Numbered from the stretch's first letter, positions 2,275 through 24,983 are shown. The stretch: DNA of 28,318 bases from Candidatus Diapherotrites archaeon CG08_land_8_20_14_0_20_30_16 (GCA_002779075.1 PEXK01000003.1:1-28318); one strand, 5' to 3'. Numbers and translations are program-made. The notes: a model not told the origin generated them from the letters alone.

Positions 2275-2409
2275 CTAATCACTTTTAATATTTGCAAGAT
2301 AAGCGACAAACCAAACCATTATTGATCTGCAAACGCTTAGATTTGATTTGTCTACTTACTGCTTTAATTTATCTTACTATTAATTATCCAGATAAACTTT
2401 TTAAGATAA

Positions 2410-3645
2410 TTATTCAGTATTATTTTTCATTAATTCATTTAAAACAACTGTAGCATATGAATTCTTTGTTAAATTAAATGATATTTTTGCATATAATCTA
2501 TTTTCAAAAAATTCATCATTGCCAATTTCGACTAACTTAAAATCAAAAATATCTAATTTGATTGGTCTATAACTTCCTTGAACTGACATTTGAGGAAATC
2601 CACCCACTTTGAATTGTGCCAATTCAATATTTTCCTCTTTTAAAATTTGTTTTTCGATTTCTCCTAAAAAGCCTTCAGAAAACTCATAATCAAAACCAAA
2701 TAATGGTCCTAAAATATTGCCTTCTGAATCCAATTTATCGCCTTTTTGCACTTTGAAAAAATCTTTTCCTAATTTCTCTTTTCTCATATCCAAATATTTG
2801 TTAAAAAGATATGATTGATATGCGTGAGGAAATAAAATCATAAGGTTTTTGGGGAGTTGTTGAAATGCTTTTACAAAATCATTAGGATCTTTAATTAGTG
2901 AATTTAATATTGCTCTTTCATATCTAAATTCTCTGCCTTTAAATTTTTTAAATGCTTCTAAATATCTTTCCTTGGATGCTAATTCTCTGGCTTCTTGTAT
3001 TTCTGCAGATTCTTTGCTGTGCTGTTTTCCTAAATATAAAAGAACAGCTTCTTTTGTTTTGTTTTCAAAAAACAATTTTCCAACTAAATGTGTTACTTGC
3101 CTAATTCCCCCAAATCTTTGCTCACCAAAATAATTAGGAATCTCAAAATGGGTTTGCATTGCAAATTCACTTAAAATATTTCTTATTTCTTTTTCCTCTA
3201 AATTAATATCTCTGATTATAATTGTAAAACTATTTCCTTTTAGATTTCCTAATTCTATTTTTTCATTTTCCCAACTAAAATCAAATAATTTTATTTGTTT
3301 GTAATTGAACTTTCTTAGCAGATCTAAATTAGGGTCAAAAAGAGATATTCTTTGTGATGTTACTCCTCTTTTATCTTTTAATCCTGCAAAACCAATTCTT
3401 GATTTTCCGCATTTCAAACATAATGCAATTGATTTTATTGCACTCTGAACATCAACATTTATTTTATGCATTGTACAATGTAAAAATTGTCTTTGGTCTG
3501 AATTTTCTGGAATGCTATATTCTTCTGAGACACCTTCGGGTAATACTCTGCAAACAGTACCATACAAAGGCAGTTCTTGAACAATAAAATCAGAATAACG
3601 ATGTTTAATAGTTCCTTTTATGGATTTTGTGGTAGTGAAATACAT
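2410..3645 (-). CDS. truD: tRNA pseudouridine synthase TruD/Pus7 family
   Basis: 411 aa. Has the N-terminal IKHRYSDFIVQE motif, the catalytic-Asp motif GLKDKRGVTSQ, and NYFGEQRFG. Confidence 0.9.
   Translation of the reverse strand: MYFTTTKSIKGTIKHRYSDFIVQELPLYGTVCRVLPEGVSEEYSIPENSDQRQFLHCTMHKINVDVQSAIKSIALCLKCGKSRIGFAGLKDKRGVTSQRISLFDPNLDLLRKFNYKQIKLFDFSWENEKIELGNLKGNSFTIIIRDINLEEKEIRNILSEFAMQTHFEIPNYFGEQRFGGIRQVTHLVGKLFFENKTKEAVLLYLGKQHSKESAEIQEARELASKERYLEAFKKFKGREFRYERAILNSLIKDPNDFVKAFQQLPKNLMILFPHAYQSYLFNKYLDMRKEKLGKDFFKVQKGDKLDSEGNILGPLFGFDYEFSEGFLGEIEKQILKEENIELAQFKVGGFPQMSVQGSYRPIKLDIFDFKLVEIGNDEFFENRLYAKISFNLTKNSYATVVLNELMKNNTE
3581..3645 (-). repeat. Direct repeat copy A: the functional 5' end of truD (first ~22 codons)
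   Basis: Aligns by hand with 5011-5075 (about 54/65 identical) and with 6375-6439 (about 48/65). All three are in the same orientation and all end in the ATG. Confidence 0.85.
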
Positions 3646-3657
3646 GAAAAAATCCTC

Positions 3658-4908
3658 TTAATCAATTAACAATGCAAATAAATAAAATGGAATATATAAT
3701 ACATTATTTTTTAATTCCATATTCAAAAAGTCCCCTACTACAACAACATCTTTTGCTAAAGCTGTTTTATTGTTACCTATTTCAAATTTAACTCCTGCAA
3801 CCAAGTAATCGTAGCCATTTTGTTTATAGTTGTAAGCAATATCTAGATTTAGATTTCTAATTACAAATGCAAAATAATCTTCTCTACCAAATCCAATTAT
3901 AGAACTCATATGTATTTGATCTAAAGAAAACCTTAAAGAAGGAATATTAAATAATATCTTTTTAGTGGTTTTAAAAATTTTAGTAGGGATTACATCACGA
4001 ACAAAAAAGATCAACTGCGAACTGATTAAAAGACCAAATATTTTCTCTACAATATCTCTTTTCAAACCAGTGTTTTTAGAAATATTATCATAATTTGTTT
4101 TTTCATTAACTGCTAAAAACCTTAAAATGGTTTCTATTTTTGTAAGATTTTCGGAATACAAATTATCTAATTTTGAAATATCTTTGTAAATTACTTTATC
4201 AATAACTTCTTTGATTTTGGGCAATGTGTTATTTTCATTTAACAAAAAAGGGAATTGTCTTAATTTATAATCTTCAAAATACTTGTATAAATCAAATGGC
4301 AGCTCTAAAGATATTTTATTCAATTTATTATATCTATCCTCATTTTTATTTATTTTAAATATTGCATCAAACAATTTTTCTTTTGCATTCAAACTGATAT
4401 TTTGTACAATGAAAAGATATTCTGAAAAACTTAAAGGTTCAATTTTATATATATCTAATCTTCTACTAATATCTGCAGATAGCTCTTTTAAATTTAGGGC
4501 GGATGAACTTGAAATAATAAATAAAAACTTTTGATAAACATCACCCCATATTTTTAATTGATCTTGCCAATTATCAATATAAGTTATTTCGTCTATTATA
4601 ATTATTCTTTTGTTTAAAGTAGAATATATTTTTATTAGTTCTTTTAGAGCTATAGAATAATTTGATAAAAAATCACCACTTGTATAAAGAGTATCATATT
4701 CTTTGGCAATGGTGTTTAATATTGTTGTTTTTCCTGTACCTCTTAAACCTATCAAAGAAATAATGTTTAAACCACCTTTTTCTAAAAAAGCATCTATTTT
4801 TGATTTAATTTTAGTATAAATCACTCTTTGTGTTATTGATTTCTGCTTTTTTATTAAATCGTCATACTCTTTCAGTAAACCTAAACTTTTTGTATATTCT
4901 TCAACCAT
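3658..4908 (-). CDS. AAA-type ATPase of the COG1373 class (AAA_14-like N-domain + DUF4143-like C-domain)
   Basis: 416 aa. Walker A is GLRGTGKTT and Walker B is RIIIIDEITY. The C-terminal YDYLVAGVKFEIGNNK resembles the D...E.K core proposed for the nuclease-like DUF4143 domain. The stop lies only 12 nt before the truD ATG. Confidence 0.7.
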   Translation of the reverse strand: MVEEYTKSLGLLKEYDDLIKKQKSITQRVIYTKIKSKIDAFLEKGGLNIISLIGLRGTGKTTILNTIAKEYDTLYTSGDFLSNYSIALKELIKIYSTLNKRIIIIDEITYIDNWQDQLKIWGDVYQKFLFIISSSSALNLKELSADISRRLDIYKIEPLSFSEYLFIVQNISLNAKEKLFDAIFKINKNEDRYNKLNKISLELPFDLYKYFEDYKLRQFPFLLNENNTLPKIKEVIDKVIYKDISKLDNLYSENLTKIETILRFLAVNEKTNYDNISKNTGLKRDIVEKIFGLLISSQLIFFVRDVIPTKIFKTTKKILFNIPSLRFSLDQIHMSSIIGFGREDYFAFVIRNLNLDIAYNYKQNGYDYLVAGVKFEIGNNKTALAKDVVVVGDFLNMELKNNVLYIPFYLFALLID

Positions 4909-4948
4909 AAAGATATAATTAATAGAAAAGTTTATAAACGCGTGTGTA

Positions 4949-4992
4949 ACTACGGTTTTAATCGTAGTATGACAGAACTTTTGGGGTTCTGT
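4949..4992. other. Two adjacent stem-loops (6 bp: 4949-4954/4963-4968; 7 bp: 4972-4978/4986-4992) between truD fragment B and the ATPase promoter
   Basis: actacg-gttttaat-cgtagt and acagaac-ttttggg-gttctgt, read directly. This is the most GC-rich patch of the intergenic region. Confidence 0.5.
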
Positions 4993-5006
4993 ACCTAAAC
5001 CGAGGT

Positions 5007-5075
5007 TTCAACAATAAAATCAGCATATCGATGTTTAATAGTTCCTTTGAGAGGTTTGGAGGAGGTGAAATACAT
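5007..5075 (-). pseudogene. truD 5' fragment, copy B (encodes MYFTSSKPLKGTIKHRYADFIVE then stops)
   Basis: Hand alignment with the truD start. The reading frame terminates 3 codons beyond the end of similarity. The ATG lies 8 nt after the AbiEii stop. Confidence 0.8.
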
Positions 5076-5083
5076 GGGGATCA

Positions 5084-5818
5084 TTATTTCCTTAATTTGG
5101 AATCTAAAAATTTAATACATTCTATATAACCTAAATTATAATTAGTTAACTTCGAAATATCGTCTTTCCATCGAGAGTAAATTTTATTCGCATTTTTGAA
5201 AATCATATTAAAATCGAGCTTTTTATCTGCAGATAACAGTTTTTTCTCTGTTAATTTTAGATCTATAGAATCATTCTTAAGAATAAAATAAAGATCGAAG
5301 TAATCTCTTGGTTGGTTTCTTGTTATTGTTGCACACAATTTTTCGGCAAACAATTCTTTTTTGTTTAGTGTCGTAATCTGGAAATCCAAACTATAAAAAT
5401 TAGGCAAAACATATTTTTCAGGTTCTAATAAAAGTGTTGGTCGCCTATTGAAATCTAGCCAAATATAACTACTTGTAGAAAAAAAACTCTTGTAATATAT
5501 TTTTATGCGAATAAAATCGTTTAATTGTTTATCATACTCTTCTTTTATAAAAAAGGGTTTATTTTCAGCTACAATCTTGCCAATTATCTTCTTTAATTCA
5601 GAAATTTCTAATTTCGTAGTAAAATCCAGATCTTCAGACAATCTTTTCTGATTTAAAAAGATTTTATTAAGAGCTGTGCCACCTTTAAAGTAAAGACCAT
5701 CAATATCTTTTAAAAAATATAACAGTACAGTTAAAAAATAATCTTTCTCAATATATTCTACTGTATATTTATTTTCCTCAGCAATATCAATCAAATCTGA
5801 CAAATTTATTAGATCCAT
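5084..5818 (-). CDS. AbiEii/AbiGii-family nucleotidyltransferase toxin (type IV TA system)
   Basis: 244 aa. YFKGGTALNKIF...RLSEDLDF is the characteristic NTase motif of this family. It overlaps the upstream antitoxin-like gene by 10 nt. Confidence 0.8.
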   Translation of the reverse strand: MDLINLSDLIDIAEENKYTVEYIEKDYFLTVLLYFLKDIDGLYFKGGTALNKIFLNQKRLSEDLDFTTKLEISELKKIIGKIVAENKPFFIKEEYDKQLNDFIRIKIYYKSFFSTSSYIWLDFNRRPTLLLEPEKYVLPNFYSLDFQITTLNKKELFAEKLCATITRNQPRDYFDLYFILKNDSIDLKLTEKKLLSADKKLDFNMIFKNANKIYSRWKDDISKLTNYNLGYIECIKFLDSKLRK

Positions 5819-6318
5819 TTTCTGCTCTCCTTTTTCGTTGCAATTAAAAAACTGTGTTCTTTTATTTTCTTTTCGACAAAATCACGAAATTTTCTAATTC
5901 TTCTAAAACAAAATTTTGTTCCTAGGATTTCTTTTGTACCTTGCTTTGTTTTTGAAAAAATATCAATAACAGTAGGTATCTGGTCAATTAAACCCCAATA
6001 ATGTGCTGCTGCTTTACCCCCTATGTAATAATCCTTGCAATCAAAAAGCTCATCTGCAACAATAAACGAATGTTCTACCCAACTTTTTTTGGCATATATT
6101 GGAACAAGAAAATATTTCCTTTTTGAAATCCTTACCACTCTTCCCTTCAACAAAAGCCTACGCAAAAATAAGGTTAAAGTATTGTAATTATTAAAAAAAC
6201 TACATATATCCTCCCGCTTAAAAAAACGCTTGCTTTTAGATTCTAAAAAAGATATAACTTGAACTTCTTTATCTGACAACCCATATTTTTGTATTCTAAC
6301 CATAATTGTTACATCCAT
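5809..6318 (-). CDS. AbiEi-like antitoxin / wHTH transcriptional regulator
   Basis: 169 aa, sitting immediately upstream of and overlapping the AbiEii-like gene, which is the canonical AbiE architecture. The N-terminal region looks like a winged helix (LSDKEVQVISFLESK...REDI). The call rests on context plus weak sequence pattern. Confidence 0.6.
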   Translation of the reverse strand: MDVTIMVRIQKYGLSDKEVQVISFLESKSKRFFKREDICSFFNNYNTLTLFLRRLLLKGRVVRISKRKYFLVPIYAKKSWVEHSFIVADELFDCKDYYIGGKAAAHYWGLIDQIPTVIDIFSKTKQGTKEILGTKFCFRRIRKFRDFVEKKIKEHSFLIATKKESRKWI

Positions 6319-6374
6319 ATTTCTAAAACAGACATATTATGGTAACAATCGTTTATAAATATATCGGCTTCAAA

Positions 6375-6439
6375 GCAATAAAATCAGTATATCTGTGTTT
6401 CATTGCTCCTTTTAGAGGCTTGGATGAAGTAAAATACAT
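6375..6439 (-). pseudogene. truD 5' fragment, copy C (encodes MYFTSSKPLKGAMKHRYTDFIAL then diverges and stops)
   Basis: Hand alignment: about 53/65 identical to copy B and about 48/65 to copy A. Followed on the coding strand by TTTATAAA and then the AbiEi start. Confidence 0.8.
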
Positions 6440-6621
6440 GGGAGTCACTTAATTAATATGTTTTTAAATGTTATTTTGAATTGTCTATTATCTTGAGTAA
6501 ACCAAAATAATCCAAAGTATCATTATTCAAATTATAAATCATACCAATTATTCTTAAATTGAAATCCACAATTTCAATAAATACCCCCATTATTAATTTT
6601 AATTTTTGGTTAAAAATGCAT

Positions 6622-7662
6622 TTAAATCCTTCTTTCTCGTCTTAAATGTTTTATTCCATGGCTTAATATTGCTGAGTCAACTAAATTCTTAACAATATTA
6701 ACTTCATTCTGTGTTAATTTAGCTTGTTTATCTGCGTCTAACAACACAGATGGAAAGCAATAATCTTTTGCATAATTTGAAATGTGTGCGATAAAACCTT
6801 TTATATCTCTTAGTTTTTGTGAAGAGTAATTATTTTGTAAAAGTTCTAAGCGCAGAGGATAATCTTCATTTACTTTAATATATGATGCATAAAAATTGAA
6901 TTTGCCATATTGCTGGAGATCATTGTAAATCAAATTGCTTTCAGTTGCAAAAATTGGGAAAAAAGAAATGCAAGAATCTTTTTCCAAAATGTAATTCAAA
7001 AAGATAACATCATTAATGTTATTCAATAATGATTTTGAAGCAAAATCGTTTTGCGCTAATTTCAGGAAAGAGTTTGCTCTTGAATCTTCAACACAACCTA
7101 ACAAACTAATATTGTTAGAATTGCAATAATCATATATTTTAACAAAATCCTGCAGCAAATCTTCGTAATCTTTGTACAACACAGAGTTATTTTGTGGTCT
7201 ATCAACAGCTTGAGGCAAAACATTGCCATCAATTAATGCATATTCTGGATTTTTATTTTGCAACCCGCAAAATAATAGTGCTAATTCTTGGCGCAATCTT
7301 GAAATGGATACATATTTGGGCAATTCTTCTTTTTGTAAAGAATTCTCAGATGTTTTGAATTCGTAATTTGGATTTTGCAACAATTTCTCATATCTGCACA
7401 ATTTTTTGTCATAGACAAAAAAGGAACCTGCTGTTTTAATGTAACAAAAATCCAAACCAGTTAATGAACTTTCAAAAAATCCTGAGTCTACGCCAATAAC
7501 AGTCCCCTTAAAACTATATTCTATTTTTTGATATTGTTCTTGTTCAACAAAACCTTTTATTGAACCGTCAATCAATTTAGATTTGATTGCTTTGGCCAAA
7601 TTAGAGATTTCATTCAACCTTTGAGTGTATTTATCTACTTGGCCTTTGATTGAAGAAAACAT
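6622..7662 (-). CDS. NurA-like 5'-3' nuclease domain protein
   Basis: 346 aa. VIGVDSGFF (N-terminal catalytic Asp region), YALIDGNVLPQ, GCVEDSRANSF and CFPSVLLDADKQAK match the conserved blocks of the NurA family as I recall them. No HerA-like gene is adjacent. Confidence 0.6.
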   Translation of the reverse strand: MFSSIKGQVDKYTQRLNEISNLAKAIKSKLIDGSIKGFVEQEQYQKIEYSFKGTVIGVDSGFFESSLTGLDFCYIKTAGSFFVYDKKLCRYEKLLQNPNYEFKTSENSLQKEELPKYVSISRLRQELALLFCGLQNKNPEYALIDGNVLPQAVDRPQNNSVLYKDYEDLLQDFVKIYDYCNSNNISLLGCVEDSRANSFLKLAQNDFASKSLLNNINDVIFLNYILEKDSCISFFPIFATESNLIYNDLQQYGKFNFYASYIKVNEDYPLRLELLQNNYSSQKLRDIKGFIAHISNYAKDYCFPSVLLDADKQAKLTQNEVNIVKNLVDSAILSHGIKHLRRERRI

Positions 7663-7763
7663 ATTAAAATAACACAGTAAATAATTAAATGCTTTGGTAT
7701 ACGCTTTAAAAATCTGTTGGATTTAATTATTTTATAGCTGTCAGGAAAAGATTAAAAGAATGG

Positions 7764-8207
7764 TTGGGAAAAAATAAACCAAAAAGACGAAGACCATTAA
7801 CATTTGAACAACAATTGTTCCAAAGAATAAAAGTAACAATAAAAATATGTGTTGAGCCTTTAATTGAAGATTGGCCAGATCTGACAATAGATAAAAAAGA
7901 AGATTTTGTTGAATACATACATAGAGAATTATACAGAGGTATAAATTTAACAAGGGAATACATACCAGAATATACTGTATTAGCAAAATTCTGTTTTTGC
8001 GTCTTAAGCGATCCTAAAATGTCAGAGATCCCAAAAGAGCGAGCTGCGGAATTATTAGCAAACATTTTAAGCAAAGAGAATTCTCACCCAGCAAAGGGGT
8101 TGTTAATTTCTAATTTACAAACAATAAGACAATTACCTAAATATCTACGGGATCTATTAGCAAAAAATCAAGACAAGGCAACAAGAAATGCAATGGGCAT
8201 AGATTGA
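7764..8207 (+). CDS. Hypothetical protein with basic N-terminus (GKNKPKRRRP)
   Basis: 147-aa ORF with protein-like composition. The overlapping minus-strand ORFs (7727..8074, 7741..7986) are low-complexity and less plausible. Its only in-frame start is a TTG. It is divergent from the NurA-like gene. Confidence 0.5.
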   Translation: MGKNKPKRRRPLTFEQQLFQRIKVTIKICVEPLIEDWPDLTIDKKEDFVEYIHRELYRGINLTREYIPEYTVLAKFCFCVLSDPKMSEIPKERAAELLANILSKENSHPAKGLLISNLQTIRQLPKYLRDLLAKNQDKATRNAMGID

Positions 8208-8243
8208 AACACATTTTATATTCTTTTACAATATTATATTAAC

Positions 8244-8858
8244 ATGTACAAAATAGGACTAATATCAACCCATGGAACAGGAAAAACTACTTTGGCCTAC
8301 ACAATAGCTGGAGAGTTCAAGAAGCAAGGCATTAAAGTAAAGCCGATTGCTGAAATGGCTACAATAGCTATAGAAAGAGGCTTTCCAATTAATAAAGGGA
8401 CTACTTTAGAAGCACAAGGATGGATTTTTCATACACAAAGTTCATTAGAGCTTGAAGCTGAAATGTATAATTATGAAGTGTGTATATGCGATAGAACAGT
8501 TTTTGATAACTTTGTTTACATGATAAACAGCTTGGGGGAACAAAAAGAATATTTGGAAATGGTTTTGGGGCATATGAAATTACACCCCTATAATAAATTA
8601 TATTTAATCCCAATAACAAACGATGAAAAAGAATTGCAAGAAGATGGTGTCAGAGATACAGACTTAAATTTTCAAAGACAAATTGACATCAAATTACGCA
8701 ACTTACTGCAAGATTTGAAAATAGAATATATTGAATTGCCAAAACCAAAGTCCAAAGATACATTGAGACAAGAATGGACAAAACTAATTATTGAAAACAC
8801 ATTAAAAGATTTGGGTAGAAAAACTTTGTTTGATTTTGACAATAAACAAGATCTATAA
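8244..8858 (+). CDS. Small P-loop NTPase (AAA_28 / NadR-kinase-like)
   Basis: 204 aa. The N-terminal Walker A is GLISTHGTGKTTLA and the Walker B-like motif is VCICDRTVFD. The size and layout match stand-alone kinase-like P-loop proteins. Confidence 0.6.
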   Translation: MYKIGLISTHGTGKTTLAYTIAGEFKKQGIKVKPIAEMATIAIERGFPINKGTTLEAQGWIFHTQSSLELEAEMYNYEVCICDRTVFDNFVYMINSLGEQKEYLEMVLGHMKLHPYNKLYLIPITNDEKELQEDGVRDTDLNFQRQIDIKLRNLLQDLKIEYIELPKPKSKDTLRQEWTKLIIENTLKDLGRKTLFDFDNKQDL

Positions 8859-20615: not shown

Positions 20616-23600
20616 TTATTCTTCTTTTCTAAATATTGATAAATATAATATTGCAATTACTGTAAATAAACTCAAACAAACAAACAAATATCTTTGTTGG
20701 CCTTCGAACAAAGGGATATCCCATGCCCCTTTGCTTCCTGTTGCTGTGCTTGGTTGATAAAGAGGATTTCCTCCGGGTTTTGTTACGCCAGCAGTATCCC
20801 TCCAACCCTCAGTTGCAAATTTATCACTAAAAGGAAGCATCTGTGAATTTGCAACTGTCCATTCTTTAGTACTTGGATCAAAATAAAATGAACCATTTCT
20901 TCCCTGTGCCATTAATAATGGTGATTTAACACCATTGTATGATAACATTGGTTTGCCATTTTCATTGCTGAATTCTATTGTATGTGGTTTGCCATCTGCT
21001 GTTGTTATTTTCACCCCTTTATCTGTTTGTTCAATTGATTTTATTTCTGAATCTGAAATTACTTTGCCTGTTTTCTTATTTATTGCTCTTAAATATTGTT
21101 TACATTCTCCATTTTCTAATTTAGAGTAAAACATCAAAGCAACATCTGGTGTTTCAAAATACTGGAAAGGCCCAGCTTTCTTTAATGCTTGGTCGAATTT
21201 TTCGCCTTTTTCTTTTGCTGAAACATCGTTTTGATTTCCTAAAACTGACAAATCAAATGTCTGTTCTTCACAGCCAGTTTCTGGATTTGTAACAGTTGTT
21301 GGTGTACCCCAAAATCTTTGAACATCTCTTCCATTTATTGATGCAATAACCTTAATCCAAAGAACAAAATCTCTGTCTGTTTTTCTGTAAATCATTACAC
21401 CTTTCTGGAATTGCACTGCTGCCAGTGTTCCTAAATCTGTTTTCTTTATTGGTGCAATAACATGAACATTTGAATCTACTATTAAACTGTCATCAATATT
21501 TAATCTTTCAACATTGCCGCCCAAAGCAGAGAAATATCTGCCATTAGGAGTTACACTTCCCACATTTTCTGTTTCTATTGCAGTAACTAGGCCAGTATAT
21601 TCAATAGAATTTGTATAGTTAAAGCCTGTTTGTTGTCTTGCGCCACCCATAAAACAAAGCATTGTGCTTGAATCAAGAATTTTGAAATCTCCATTAGGAT
21701 ACATTTGGAAATAATCAACACTTAAATCTGCAGGAATAAAAGTTGCACTCTGTGGAATTTCATAACCCCCAAATATTCCATTTTTAGCTGCAAGTTCAAT
21801 TAAATCGCTTTGCAAAACCTTATTTCCATTGACAAATATTGCATCCTGTGATTTATCTATCAAAACATTAAATGGTTTGTTATCAAATGTTTTGCCAGTT
21901 GCAGAAATCAAACTTTTTTTGTCCTCACCATTAACATTGCATGTTGATCTTGGACCAAACCATGCTAAAAAAATTCCTGGTGTTTCATATTTTCCTGTTG
22001 CAATATTTTTCGTATCATATTCAATTTGCAAAAATTCTTTTTCATTATCTTGAACCAAATTTACAAGTTTATTTTTTATATCATCAATTGCTTTATTCAC
22101 TTTGTCTAATGTATCTTCTGGCTTTGGTGCACCAGCAGTTGCAACAGTTTCTTTGCCTTTTGAAACCAGACCGCCAAGAATACCTTGATTTTCTGATTCT
22201 TTTGTAAACTTATGAACATAATGTATGTAATACCCTTCCTCACTATCAACACAATCTTCAAAATGGTCCATTACTTGAGTATCTATAAGATATGACCCCG
22301 TAGTACCTAAAAGCATTGCAGAAACTCCTGGCAAAAACAACATAGGTACATAGAAAATAGTACTATCAATAAGTCCTACTGCCAAACCAACACGTGATGC
22401 ATTTGCTTTAAACCAATCATCAAAAATAGGTATTTGCCCAAAGAAAGATGTTGCTACTTTATCAAAGCATGTTTCTTTTGCTGATATTGCCTGTTCAATA
22501 TTTATTTTATCATTTACATTTGTTCCTTTACTTGTATTGCCCATATTAAACTCAATATTTGTGTGGTGTGTAAACACAGCTAAACTCAACCCATCCTGCA
22601 AAGTTTTAGAATCTGGGAATTCCAAAATATAATTTTTAGTATCATTTTTTGCAAGTGTTATTACATTAATAATATTTCCTTTTTGTTTTCTTACAACAAC
22701 ACATTCTCTGCAATTTTCTAATGTTGTAATATAATGCACAACATCTTTAACATTATCTCTTGATTTTACACCTGCAAAATCAAAAATAGTTTTTTTCATA
22801 CCTTCATTAGGCATAATAGTTCCAATAGTTTTTGCAATTGTTTTTATAAAAACTTCCCCAAAAAAATCTCCACTTGAAAATGTTTCATTTACAAAAAAAT
22901 CAATATATGCATCATTATATACACCACTTGAGCCTGTAAAAATTTTAACATTGCTCATTTCTTTTTCGCCAACAAAATATGCTTTCAATGGTGAACTTTC
23001 AGATGTTTTCATCATCCAATATACTTGCGGTCCCAAAAAAGTTAACCCAAACTTTTTTATAAAATTTTGAGAGAATGTATATTTCTGTTGATATAGCATC
23101 CAATTTAATAAATTTGCATATTTAGCATCTTGCAATCCGCGAGTTTTCATTGCTATTAACATATCTGCAGACCTGGCCTCTATTTTGGGCATTGTTTTTC
23201 CACCAAATTCAGCAAACAGTTTATGCATTTCATCAACAATAGTTTGTGATTCTTTCTCGCCCAATGCTTTGAAACCACTTTTAGGAACTACGCTAACAGA
23301 TATTTGAGGTAGTCCAGGATATGCTGCTTTTATTGTTTCTAATGTTTGTTCATTTAAATGCACCCAAGAACCATTAACATTAACAACATATTTCTCTGCT
23401 GTTGCTTTAGCTAATCCTTCTAATTTATTTATTGCTACAGGATTAGGCAATGGCGTAGGCGATGCAACCTCTAGTAATGTACGTATCTTTTTATCCTTAA
23501 TGTCTTTGAAAGGTTCAAATTTAGGATCAGATAACCCAGTTCCCAAGATTCCCTTCTTTGCAGGCTTGCTAGCTAATCCTACTATCCCATCTGCACCTTT

Positions 23601-24983
23601 TACCTCTACAAAGTATTTAGCATATTGTGGGTTCTTTTCAAAGAATAAATCAACCATTGATTGCCCTAATCCTGCTGGTGTATCATTTGTTGCTATTAAT
23701 ATATCCCTAACAAGAGCAGGATTTGATTCTGCTGCTATTTTAAGTTGTGCCCCAAGTACACTGGAATATGCTTGCCTTGTTTCTAAAAATTTCGCTAATG
23801 CTCTTTTTTTCCGTGGAGTATCAAGCTTTTCGAAAACTGGTTTAAGAGCTGCTACTAATTTGTCTGAAGAACGTTCTGCAAATGCTTTTTCCAAAGCTTT
23901 AATTTTATCTGCATCTAATCCATCTAGAAGTCCCGTGGCTCTTAAATTTGCTGCTGCTTTTTCTGCAGCTCCTTGATAACCGCCACTAAAAAGTTTATAT
24001 TTTAATGCTTTTATTGGTGACCCTTCTTTATTCAACAAATCTGTTAATCCTGTAAGTTTTGCTGCTTTTTTTGTCAGACCCCAAACTGCGGGTCCTGCAG
24101 CAGTTGCAATCAAACTGCCAGAATAATAACTATTATAAAACCTGTTGAAAAAAGAATAAATGTAAATCTTGCATCTTTCACCTGCATTTGGTCCTGTGCA
24201 TATATCTTGAAAATAAGCAGTAAAATCATCTGTTTGAACATGATTTGGAATTAAAACATTTGATTTTGGTCTTTGAGGTACATCAGCTTTTGCATTCCCT
24301 AGAGCTTCAGGATCATTCCAATCATCTAAAGTTGTTTTTGGGGGGGGGCCAATACCCTCTGTTCCTTCTTTCTTTAAAAATTCGTCTTCTGCTTTTTTTA
24401 TTTCTTCTGGATTTTTCTTTGTAATATTGCTTGTCAAAGTTTTTTCATCAAAAATACCGAAAAAGCTTTGTTCTGCCAAAGCTACACCAGTAACTGAATT
24501 GGAAAACTGCAAACCGCCAACATTCACACTGCAGTTTTGCACTTGCCCCATGCATCTTGCTACCCTTAATGTTTTTTCTAAAATCATTCCATTTGAAAAA
24601 TCGCCAGTACAAGTTTCATGCAATTTAGCATCTTTTTCATCAACACCCTTTGTTTCACAGTCTATTTTAATAGCTCCACCCATTTCTTTTGTTTCATTTA
24701 AAACATTTATCTCTGGGCATTCTTCTGCTGGTGTTTTTTGCGTTTTTGCATTTGTATCATTTACTGCTTTCCCAGAACGCATTTCACTGGGCTTTGCATA
24801 TTGATACAAAAAATTGTTCCAAAGTGACTGTACTTGCTGGGGAGTTAAAACAATTGTTCTGCAAGAGCCCATAAAACAGGCTTCGCTTTTGCATTGATAA
24901 TCTTCAGCATGTACAAAATTAGTGACAAAAATAAATGCAAGGAAAATAAAAAGCAAAGAAAACAACAAAAGTTTAATATTCAT
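20616..24983 (-). CDS. Giant secreted/surface protein, 1455 aa, N-terminal signal peptide and C-terminal TM anchor; no recognised domain
   Basis: The N-terminus MNIKLLLFSLLFIFLAFIFVTNFVHA|EDYQC looks like a Sec signal. A Cys-rich N-terminal region follows. The C-terminus ...YLFVCLSLFTVIAILYLSIFRKEE is a TM helix with a charged tail. Several internal hydrophobic stretches occur. The long uninterrupted ORF in AT-rich DNA is itself strong coding evidence. Confidence 0.85.
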   Translation of the reverse strand: MNIKLLLFSLLFIFLAFIFVTNFVHAEDYQCKSEACFMGSCRTIVLTPQQVQSLWNNFLYQYAKPSEMRSGKAVNDTNAKTQKTPAEECPEINVLNETKEMGGAIKIDCETKGVDEKDAKLHETCTGDFSNGMILEKTLRVARCMGQVQNCSVNVGGLQFSNSVTGVALAEQSFFGIFDEKTLTSNITKKNPEEIKKAEDEFLKKEGTEGIGPPPKTTLDDWNDPEALGNAKADVPQRPKSNVLIPNHVQTDDFTAYFQDICTGPNAGERCKIYIYSFFNRFYNSYYSGSLIATAAGPAVWGLTKKAAKLTGLTDLLNKEGSPIKALKYKLFSGGYQGAAEKAAANLRATGLLDGLDADKIKALEKAFAERSSDKLVAALKPVFEKLDTPRKKRALAKFLETRQAYSSVLGAQLKIAAESNPALVRDILIATNDTPAGLGQSMVDLFFEKNPQYAKYFVEVKGADGIVGLASKPAKKGILGTGLSDPKFEPFKDIKDKKIRTLLEVASPTPLPNPVAINKLEGLAKATAEKYVVNVNGSWVHLNEQTLETIKAAYPGLPQISVSVVPKSGFKALGEKESQTIVDEMHKLFAEFGGKTMPKIEARSADMLIAMKTRGLQDAKYANLLNWMLYQQKYTFSQNFIKKFGLTFLGPQVYWMMKTSESSPLKAYFVGEKEMSNVKIFTGSSGVYNDAYIDFFVNETFSSGDFFGEVFIKTIAKTIGTIMPNEGMKKTIFDFAGVKSRDNVKDVVHYITTLENCRECVVVRKQKGNIINVITLAKNDTKNYILEFPDSKTLQDGLSLAVFTHHTNIEFNMGNTSKGTNVNDKINIEQAISAKETCFDKVATSFFGQIPIFDDWFKANASRVGLAVGLIDSTIFYVPMLFLPGVSAMLLGTTGSYLIDTQVMDHFEDCVDSEEGYYIHYVHKFTKESENQGILGGLVSKGKETVATAGAPKPEDTLDKVNKAIDDIKNKLVNLVQDNEKEFLQIEYDTKNIATGKYETPGIFLAWFGPRSTCNVNGEDKKSLISATGKTFDNKPFNVLIDKSQDAIFVNGNKVLQSDLIELAAKNGIFGGYEIPQSATFIPADLSVDYFQMYPNGDFKILDSSTMLCFMGGARQQTGFNYTNSIEYTGLVTAIETENVGSVTPNGRYFSALGGNVERLNIDDSLIVDSNVHVIAPIKKTDLGTLAAVQFQKGVMIYRKTDRDFVLWIKVIASINGRDVQRFWGTPTTVTNPETGCEEQTFDLSVLGNQNDVSAKEKGEKFDQALKKAGPFQYFETPDVALMFYSKLENGECKQYLRAINKKTGKVISDSEIKSIEQTDKGVKITTADGKPHTIEFSNENGKPMLSYNGVKSPLLMAQGRNGSFYFDPSTKEWTVANSQMLPFSDKFATEGWRDTAGVTKPGGNPLYQPSTATGSKGAWDIPLFEGQQRYLFVCLSLFTVIAILYLSIFRKEE
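24340..24348. repeat. G9 homopolymer (C9 on the coding strand, encoding GPPPK) inside the giant gene
   Basis: Counted directly: ...gttgttttt-ggggggggg-cc... I saw no other G/C run of this length while reading the window. Confidence 0.9.

Follow-up and report, generated by a model that had tools for sequence, protein, structure and literature searches.

The 5′ end of truD, the gene for tRNA pseudouridine-13 synthase, occurs three times in the same orientation in a 28,318-nt stretch of the genome of Candidatus Diapherotrites archaeon CG08_land_8_20_14_0_20_30_16 from Crystal Geyser (PEXK01000003.1:1-28318, GCA_002779075.1; hereafter the window), and the three copies delimit two small cassettes of predicted defence genes. 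The explanation we favour, with a probability of roughly 0.55, is serial site-specific integration (tandem accretion) of cassettes that lack an integrase, each of which supplied a replacement start for truD, with the recombinase provided in trans. DPANN archaea have genomes of ~1 Mb with few recognised mobile elements, and to our knowledge the acquisition and turnover of their defence genes are poorly understood. The truD locus is a concrete, sequence-defined entry point to DPANN defence-gene acquisition: in two lineages, a 66-nt site within a conserved gene has taken up unrelated defence modules on at least three occasions.

A self-repeat search of the window (29.7% GC, no tRNA genes) returned one standout family of direct repeats, consisting of three co-oriented 70-nt copies on the minus strand, the remaining families being 30–50 nt long with ~70% matches and of chance quality. 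Copy A (3577–3646) is the functional 5′ end of truD, from the ATG to the codons for DFIVQ, and retains all family-invariant residues; the gene itself is intact (2410–3645, minus strand; 411 aa; Pfam PF01142, E = 4e-99) and its product matches the TruD of Ca. Diapherotrites archaeon CG08_land_8_20_14 with 100% identity. Copy B (5007–5076) and the outermost copy C (6371–6440) are displaced truD 5′ fragments, with spacings of 1430 nt from A to B and 1364 nt from B to C. On the coding strand the similarity extends from the ATG to just past GATTTTATTG (codons 19–22, DFIV). An initial annotation, made from the sequence by eye, had already described three truD 5′ copies in one orientation, and had estimated their identity at 74–83%, close to the computed values of 84% (A/B), 79% (B/C) and 71% (A/C) over 70 nt. 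Its description of ATG starts, TruD-like N-termini and early stops in the displaced copies was likewise borne out: all three copies begin with ATG and encode TruD-like N-termini, and the open reading frames (ORFs) of B and C stop after 26 and 28 codons, respectively. Against a hidden Markov model (HMM) of the TruD N-terminus, trained on 23 full-length homologues with copies B and C excluded and used in a six-frame search of 81 sequences, B scored 58.7 bits (E = 1e-15) and C 54.1 bits (E = 3e-14). A degenerate DNA pattern written strictly from the repeat matched three times in the window and not at all in shuffled sequences; it was too stringent to recover a decayed fragment at locus L081, which was recognised by inspecting the sequence (L numbers denote comparison contigs or loci of relatives that carry truD or ATPase homologues). 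The three-copy repeat is genuine and not a product of chance.

At the inner edge of the repeat lies a 12-nt block, CTGATTTTATTG, that is identical in A, B and C (3582–3593, 5012–5023 and 6376–6387, minus strand) and is the putative crossover core. This core is shared within a genome and differs between genomes, with three occurrences of CTGATTTTATTG in the window and two of CTGATTTTGTTGTT in L081. At each of the three left junctions in the window and L081, which adjoin unrelated cargo, the similarity ends at most 5 nt from one and the same point. Copies A and B form a mosaic, with matches at 37/39 positions over nt 28–66 and at 19/27 over nt 1–27, a pattern that fits either a long stretch of identity at the attachment (att) site or a homologous crossover.

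The alignment of A, B and C contains 19 variable columns, distributed 7/1/11 over codon positions 1/2/3; under neutral drift, the binomial probability of finding at most one of 19 at position 2 is ~0.005. In addition, the first 11 residues are the same in B and C despite five synonymous differences. Because only 1/19 variable columns falls at the second codon position and because of these synonymous changes between B and C, the copies diverged while being read as protein, as working gene starts, and not through local duplication. A recent local duplication had also been discounted in the initial annotation, with which the codon-position pattern agrees. Such selection-shaped divergence would follow because a replacement start must function as protein. 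An old tandem duplication that took in the truD start and the DNA upstream of it, followed by insertion of unrelated genes between the copies, would produce direct, co-oriented repeats of equal length, but the codon-position pattern is not one expected of dead copies drifting in place, the DNA upstream of the three ATGs is unrelated, and a lineage that is no clear sister has the same structure around other cargo (L081, below); we hold an origin of this kind to be very improbable.

Changes at family-invariant or conserved residues are confined to displaced copies, namely V22A at a family-invariant residue in C, S18A at a conserved position in B, and loss of M1 together with K14R in the left copy of L081. 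At the same time truD is full length and keeps its family-invariant N-terminal residues, truncation and mutation being restricted to the distal copies. As judged from these substitutions, the displaced copies have begun to decay since their displacement.

The folding of the repeats was also compared. Copy C alone forms a stable 10-bp hairpin (z = −2.6), A and B showing no gain in stability over shuffled sequences (z = +1.1 and +0.9), and its three unusual substitutions (GCA, ATG and GCT) each increase the pairing of codons 11–14 with codons 19–22. A weaker version of this dyad, with 6–10 of the 10 pairs, was found in every truD orthologue. Dyad symmetry was considered as the mark of a recombinase site and rejected, as it is equally present in all orthologues.

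The cargo between the copies was annotated with Pfam and PADLOC, and the results match the 1430-bp ATPase unit and the 1364-bp AbiEi/AbiEii unit of the initial annotation. Cassette 1, between B and A, carries a gene for a 416-aa AAA_14 ATPase (3658–4908, minus strand; PF13173, E = 7e-22; PADLOC PDC-S01, E = 3e-20), a protein similar to the candidate defence family PDC-S01. Cassette 2, between C and B, encodes a 244-aa AbiEii nucleotidyltransferase toxin (5084–5818, minus strand; PF08843, E = 7e-27; PADLOC, E = 2e-33) and a 169-aa AbiEi antitoxin (5809–6318, minus strand; PADLOC, E = 1e-18; Pfam AbiEi_1 weak). The two genes are adjacent with a 10-nt overlap, the arrangement of a predicted AbiE type IV toxin-antitoxin system, and the closest AbiEii homologues are just 58% identical and spread over DPANN lineages. 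Beyond copy C lie an intergenic region of 21% GC (6441–6621, minus strand), presumed to hold the original truD promoter, and a NurA-domain gene (6622–7662, minus strand; PF09376) that is the conserved upstream flank of the hotspot. An Rfam scan of 2300–7800 gave no match.

Both cassettes are compact and built to one plan: a truD fragment, 52–98 nt with a TATA-like box, the cargo ORFs and 7–12 nt to the next ATG, with no spare sequence. Cassette 1 comprises 70 + 98 + 1251 + 12 nt (one base of copy A being counted in the linker) and cassette 2 comprises 70 + 52 + 1235 + 7 nt. A junction of 12 nt (3646–3657, minus strand) separates the ATPase stop from the truD ATG. In it, a GAGGA sequence at ~3654–3658, which may be a Shine-Dalgarno motif, spans the stop codon and the first 4 nt; comparably tight junctions are found ahead of copy B (7 nt) and in the relatives L081 (8 nt) and L090 (4 nt). 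The array as a whole reads C, AbiE, B, ATPase, A, such that B is common to both units, and the units are att-flanked without genes for integration or transfer.

The left end of cassette 1 is simply the start of the ATPase's own control region, because a conserved block (4909–5006, minus strand) begins less than 10 nt past copy B. This block, delineated by alignment with homologues, consists of two short hairpins of the TACG-N8-CGTA type (~4972–4992 and ~4949–4968; fold z-score −1.66) and a TATA box, TTTATAAA (4931–4938), 22 nt ahead of the ATG. The same ~100-nt arrangement, with the box ~22 nt before the ATG, precedes the AAA_14/PDC-S01-like homologues in L093 (5900–6000), L096 (5900–6000) and L098 (2780–2894), and is probably the operator plus promoter of the gene family. 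The leader of cassette 2 (6319–6370, minus strand) has a TATA-like TTTATAAA box at 6352–6359, 33 nt before the AbiEi ATG, as a candidate promoter. The initial annotation had noted such a box in each unit; the boxes are present where it placed them, but the motif is not enriched in the window (7 found versus 6.6 expected) and that of cassette 1 is the ATPase gene's own TATA box. Mobilisation of the ATPase unit by an IS200/IS605-type mechanism with hairpin ends was also considered and rejected, because the unit leaves no space in which a right-end hairpin could lie and the hairpins present belong to the conserved promoter-proximal block of the gene family.

The compactness of the cassettes bears on a further possibility, that they are remnants of two larger elements (proviruses or plasmids with integrases) which integrated at truD and lost everything but a defence module. 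Reduction to att-flanked remnants is common (PMC5704250; tycheposon islands), and an array that is fixed while its outer fragments decay would suit such a history. Yet the three cassettes known, two in the window and one in L081, each run from the core to the cargo promoter and end 7–12 nt before an ATG, with no pseudogene scraps or spare sequence, and three such clean, independent deletions are unlikely; we regard this history as quite doubtful.

Relatives of the window differ at the locus. The gene order PheS-PheT-(x)-NurA-[variable]-truD-UMPH1 is held in all close relatives whose contigs reach upstream, the close clade being defined by a TruD identity of at least 60% and represented by 15 lineages. 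The empty site, for which a search had been proposed in the initial annotation, was found in L088/L089, where the NurA stop is followed by 49 nt and the truD ATG. Also found, as that annotation had proposed to look for, was a truD-like fragment flanking different cargo. In L081 (JGI) and L085 (ENA), one lineage from two sources, a second truD 5′ fragment, which reads TYFTNTKPLKGTIRHRYSDFVV-stop, follows directly after NurA, and is itself followed by a TATA-like region, an AbiEi/AbiEii pair, 8 nt and an intact truD. As a cassette, this AbiE pair is unrelated to that of the window (AbiEii 27% identical, AbiEi with no detectable similarity), and L081/L085 is a second, independent case. Its TruD is 75% identical to that of the window and 73–77% identical to those of fragment-free lineages, and so the lineage is, by this measure, not a clear sister of the window. 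An arrangement identical in all relatives would have favoured an old fixed duplication according to the initial annotation, and this is not what the locus displays.

A third lineage carries cargo at the same place in another form. In L090 (Logan SRR21710569 contig, 2456–7000) a 4.5-kb block with a HATPase_c gene, a DUF4325 gene and a gene for a 1101-aa MmeI-like type IIG restriction-modification enzyme fits exactly between the TATA box of truD and its start codon. Alignment with L002 (82% identical) puts the left junction of the block 5 nt ahead of the ATG, just past the TATA box, and the cargo stop is 4 nt before the ATG; the island has no duplication of the truD 5′ end. The interval between NurA and truD thus holds variable, defence-enriched cargo in three lineages, as is characteristic of a defence-island hotspot: AbiE and the PDC-S01-like ATPase in the window, a different AbiE in L081, and the type IIG enzyme with HATPase_c/DUF4325 in L090. 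In seven lineages a small ORF of 83–130 aa lies beside truD on the opposite strand, with extra small ORFs alongside it in L002 and L003; other small ORFs, without a match to any family, occur in three lineages, and the contig of L084 ends too near truD to show the interval. The opposite-strand ORF, which has no Pfam match, was seen in L002, L003, L086, L090, L091, L092, L107 and L108, and is absent from the window, L081 and L088.

Under serial site-specific integration, the attachment site would lie within the ~66 nt that begin truD, and the crossover would take place at GATTTTATTG or close to it. An incoming cassette would consist of a TATA-box promoter, one defence module, a Shine-Dalgarno-like linker of 7–12 nt and a truD-like start that begins at the ATG and reaches the core. 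When the core of a circular form recombined with that in truD, the old gene start would remain beyond the cassette as a short, dead ORF, and the replacement start would be fused to the body of truD, which would stay intact and become the last gene of the cassette's transcription unit. The observed anatomy fits what a single crossover at a core inside truD predicts, with the distal copy as the old start and the proximal copy as its replacement. The initial annotation had read the copies in a similar way, as truD 5′ ends brought by integrating elements, and that reading is borne out in outline. In the window, C would be the original host start, the AbiE cassette would have brought B, and the ATPase cassette, inserted at B, would have brought A; alternatively, the order may have been the reverse, with the later insertion at the outer copy. 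The enzyme would act in trans and be encoded by the host or by a larger sister element, and a recombinase in trans is the most economical proposal because the cassettes are too small to encode one.

The junctions between cargo and truD give some indication of how the gene may be expressed. Native truD starts look leaderless, with a TATA box ~27 nt upstream, whereas the 7–12-nt cassette linkers have GAGG-like motifs; this difference suggests that truD is the last cistron of a cassette transcript. The tightness of the junctions further suggests that the cassettes tie their own retention to expression of a housekeeping gene.

Several observations weigh against serial site-specific integration. 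Recombinase or transposase domains were found in none of the window ORFs scanned (17 of at least 90 aa and 6 shorter, the unscanned ORFs of at least 90 aa overlapping scanned ones), and with no spare room in the cassettes this agrees with the absence of an integrase or transposase in or beside the island stated in the initial annotation. Eight contigs from several Crystal Geyser data sets, located by an exact search with the ATPase protein, carry the array at ≥99.9% identity, colinear in 8/8 places and with no population polymorphism. The array is fixed in the sampled population and gives no sign of current mobility. An integrase-bearing element with a truD-like start was not found in IMG/VR, GenBank phages or PLSDB plasmids, and no truD-like tail is present next to the closest ATPase homologues (L093–L098). 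The repeats occur in only 2/15 close lineages, and an extra truD start was found at 0/77 more distant loci of Iainarchaeia and other archaea with the HMM and with self-BLAST, the latter being blind to copies below ~85% identity. Copy A is 86% identical at the DNA level to the working truD start of L081 and 85% to that of L002, a likeness to relatives that would not be the simplest expectation for a foreign A. L090, finally, implies either that DNA enters the site by a second route as well or that the site is merely permissive.

Some of these observations lend weight to capture without a dedicated recombinase, in which DNA from a related strain, with the cargo already beside truD, would have entered by homologous recombination in the conserved 5′ stretch of the gene. 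Variants of this proposal are a Campbell-type insertion of a circularised fragment and homology-facilitated illegitimate recombination anchored in truD, the repeats being in each case the homology used. The A/B mosaic would then be the outcome of a crossover in the most identical segment, no recombinase is found in the scanned ORFs, and the truD start is 70–87% conserved at the DNA level among relatives, enough for short identical blocks. The uptake of DNA in L090 without an att-type duplication also speaks for it, and NurA, a homologous-recombination gene, adjoins the site, which may be coincidence. On the other hand, illegitimate joins would be expected to scatter, but the inner boundary falls within 5 nt in three junctions of two genomes; the identical blocks are just 12–20 nt long; and a Campbell circle must already hold exactly that piece of truD, which merely shifts the question. 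On balance we think recombinase-free capture rather unlikely. If no dedicated recombinase exists, a capture mechanism driven by the host would be indicated.

A bolder version of the same theme, which we consider speculative and improbable, is that DPANN archaea possess a recombinase-less, integron-like capture platform, in which the first 66 nt of truD serve both as attachment site and as a portable translation-start module. Each cassette would bring a promoter, a linker and a replacement start, and would be inserted by a host enzyme, such as XerA or the homologous-recombination machinery. Were this so, a housekeeping gene would be rewired as the last gene of the newest cassette operon, and selection on truD expression would protect the cassette.

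The distribution of the repeat and the source of the cassettes were pursued in wider collections. A DNA profile of the 5′ 72 nt, applied to 109 loci, found extra copies only in the population of the window and in L081/L085, and a scan of genome contigs gave 80 loci, 3 in the NurA-truD clade and 77 outside, the latter having a different upstream neighbour of truD. Neither the window, the 109 loci, IMG/VR, the phages nor the plasmids yielded a cognate integrase-bearing element of the same att specificity. A tblastn search of GenBank phages and PLSDB plasmids with the fragment peptide gave no match; the strict repeat pattern had no match in IMG/VR and returned only four single-copy truD starts from JGI metagenomes. 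A literature search for truD as an integration site gave no relevant report, its sole match being the surname 'Trudel'.

ATPase homologues at 60–72% identity sit in unrelated contexts. The closest (72%, in L093) is followed by an RHH/PIN toxin-antitoxin pair (7559–8193), in a small defence/toxin-antitoxin cluster in a different chromosomal context. L096 has a duplicated junction block (2179–2260, 3194–3318, 5785–5946 and 7225–7269) that combines the 3′ end of AbiEii with a spacer, the hairpin block from upstream of the ATPase and a remnant of the ATPase 3′ end, with radical SAM and acetyltransferase genes inserted and no truD fragment; it has the look of AbiE/ATPase units that once stood in tandem and have decayed.

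Among known systems, the closest analogue in logic is the dusA-specific islands, in which sequence borne by the island takes the place of the 5′ end of a tRNA-modification gene (Farrugia et al. 2015, PMC4482086). As at truD, the target is the 5′ end of a gene for a tRNA-modification enzyme, a new 5′ end is supplied and the gene is left intact, semi-conserved direct repeats flank highly diverse cargo, and relatives retain an empty site (L088/L089 here). In contrast to the truD cassettes, dusA islands always have a tyrosine integrase (dusA-associated integrase, DAI) beside the att site, their defining feature; they measure kb to tens of kb, have att sites of 21–28 bp, are found in bacteria (Proteobacteria), and have been demonstrated to excise. 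The truD cassettes are 1.4-kb units with repeats of ~66 nt in an archaeal host. If mobilised in trans, the cassettes would rank with the smallest known integrative units of archaea, and the strategy of replacing the 5′ end of a tRNA-modification gene would extend from bacteria to archaea.

Integrase-less, att-flanked elements that accrete in tandem have been described (PMC5704250). The cis-mobilisable elements (CIMEs) and tandem accretions of integrative and conjugative or integrative and mobilisable (ICE/IME-type) elements (Pavlovic et al. 2004; PMC5704250) resemble the truD array in being att-flanked, devoid of integration genes and arranged head to tail with a shared internal att site, and their mobilisation is presumed to occur in trans by the integrase of a related element. 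They differ in being recognisable deletion derivatives of ICEs of the same species, with 3′-end targets and in Firmicutes, whereas no parent element is known for the truD cassettes. Additive genomic islands and tycheposon islands, which sit at tRNA genes (Hackl et al., bioRxiv 10.1101/2020.12.28.424599) share serial integration that pushes older elements outward, partial target copies between cargo blocks, a streamlined genome and cargo that includes defence genes; unlike the truD array, they target tRNA genes, carry integrases in many elements and are found in cyanobacterial hosts. Integron cassette arrays are similar in that small, single-function cassettes without their own recombinase are inserted in one orientation at one site. 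The integron-like label of the initial annotation holds as an analogy only: the defining features of integrons are absent, there being no intI or attI at truD, the repeats are not attC hairpins, and each cassette at the truD locus has its own promoter. What is new here is the combination of a DPANN archaeal host, the 5′ end of a protein gene as target, and 1.4-kb integrase-less defence cassettes stacked in tandem.

Other features of the window lie outside the array. The interval between PheT and NurA holds an AAA_28 ATPase gene and a 147-aa ORF (7764–8858, plus strand), and is also variable in relatives, with a 158-aa ORF in L001, ORFs of 251 and 198 aa in L086 and a NUDIX gene in L003. Further away, at 20616–24983 on the minus strand, is a 1455-aa ORF with no Pfam match at E ≤ 0.001.

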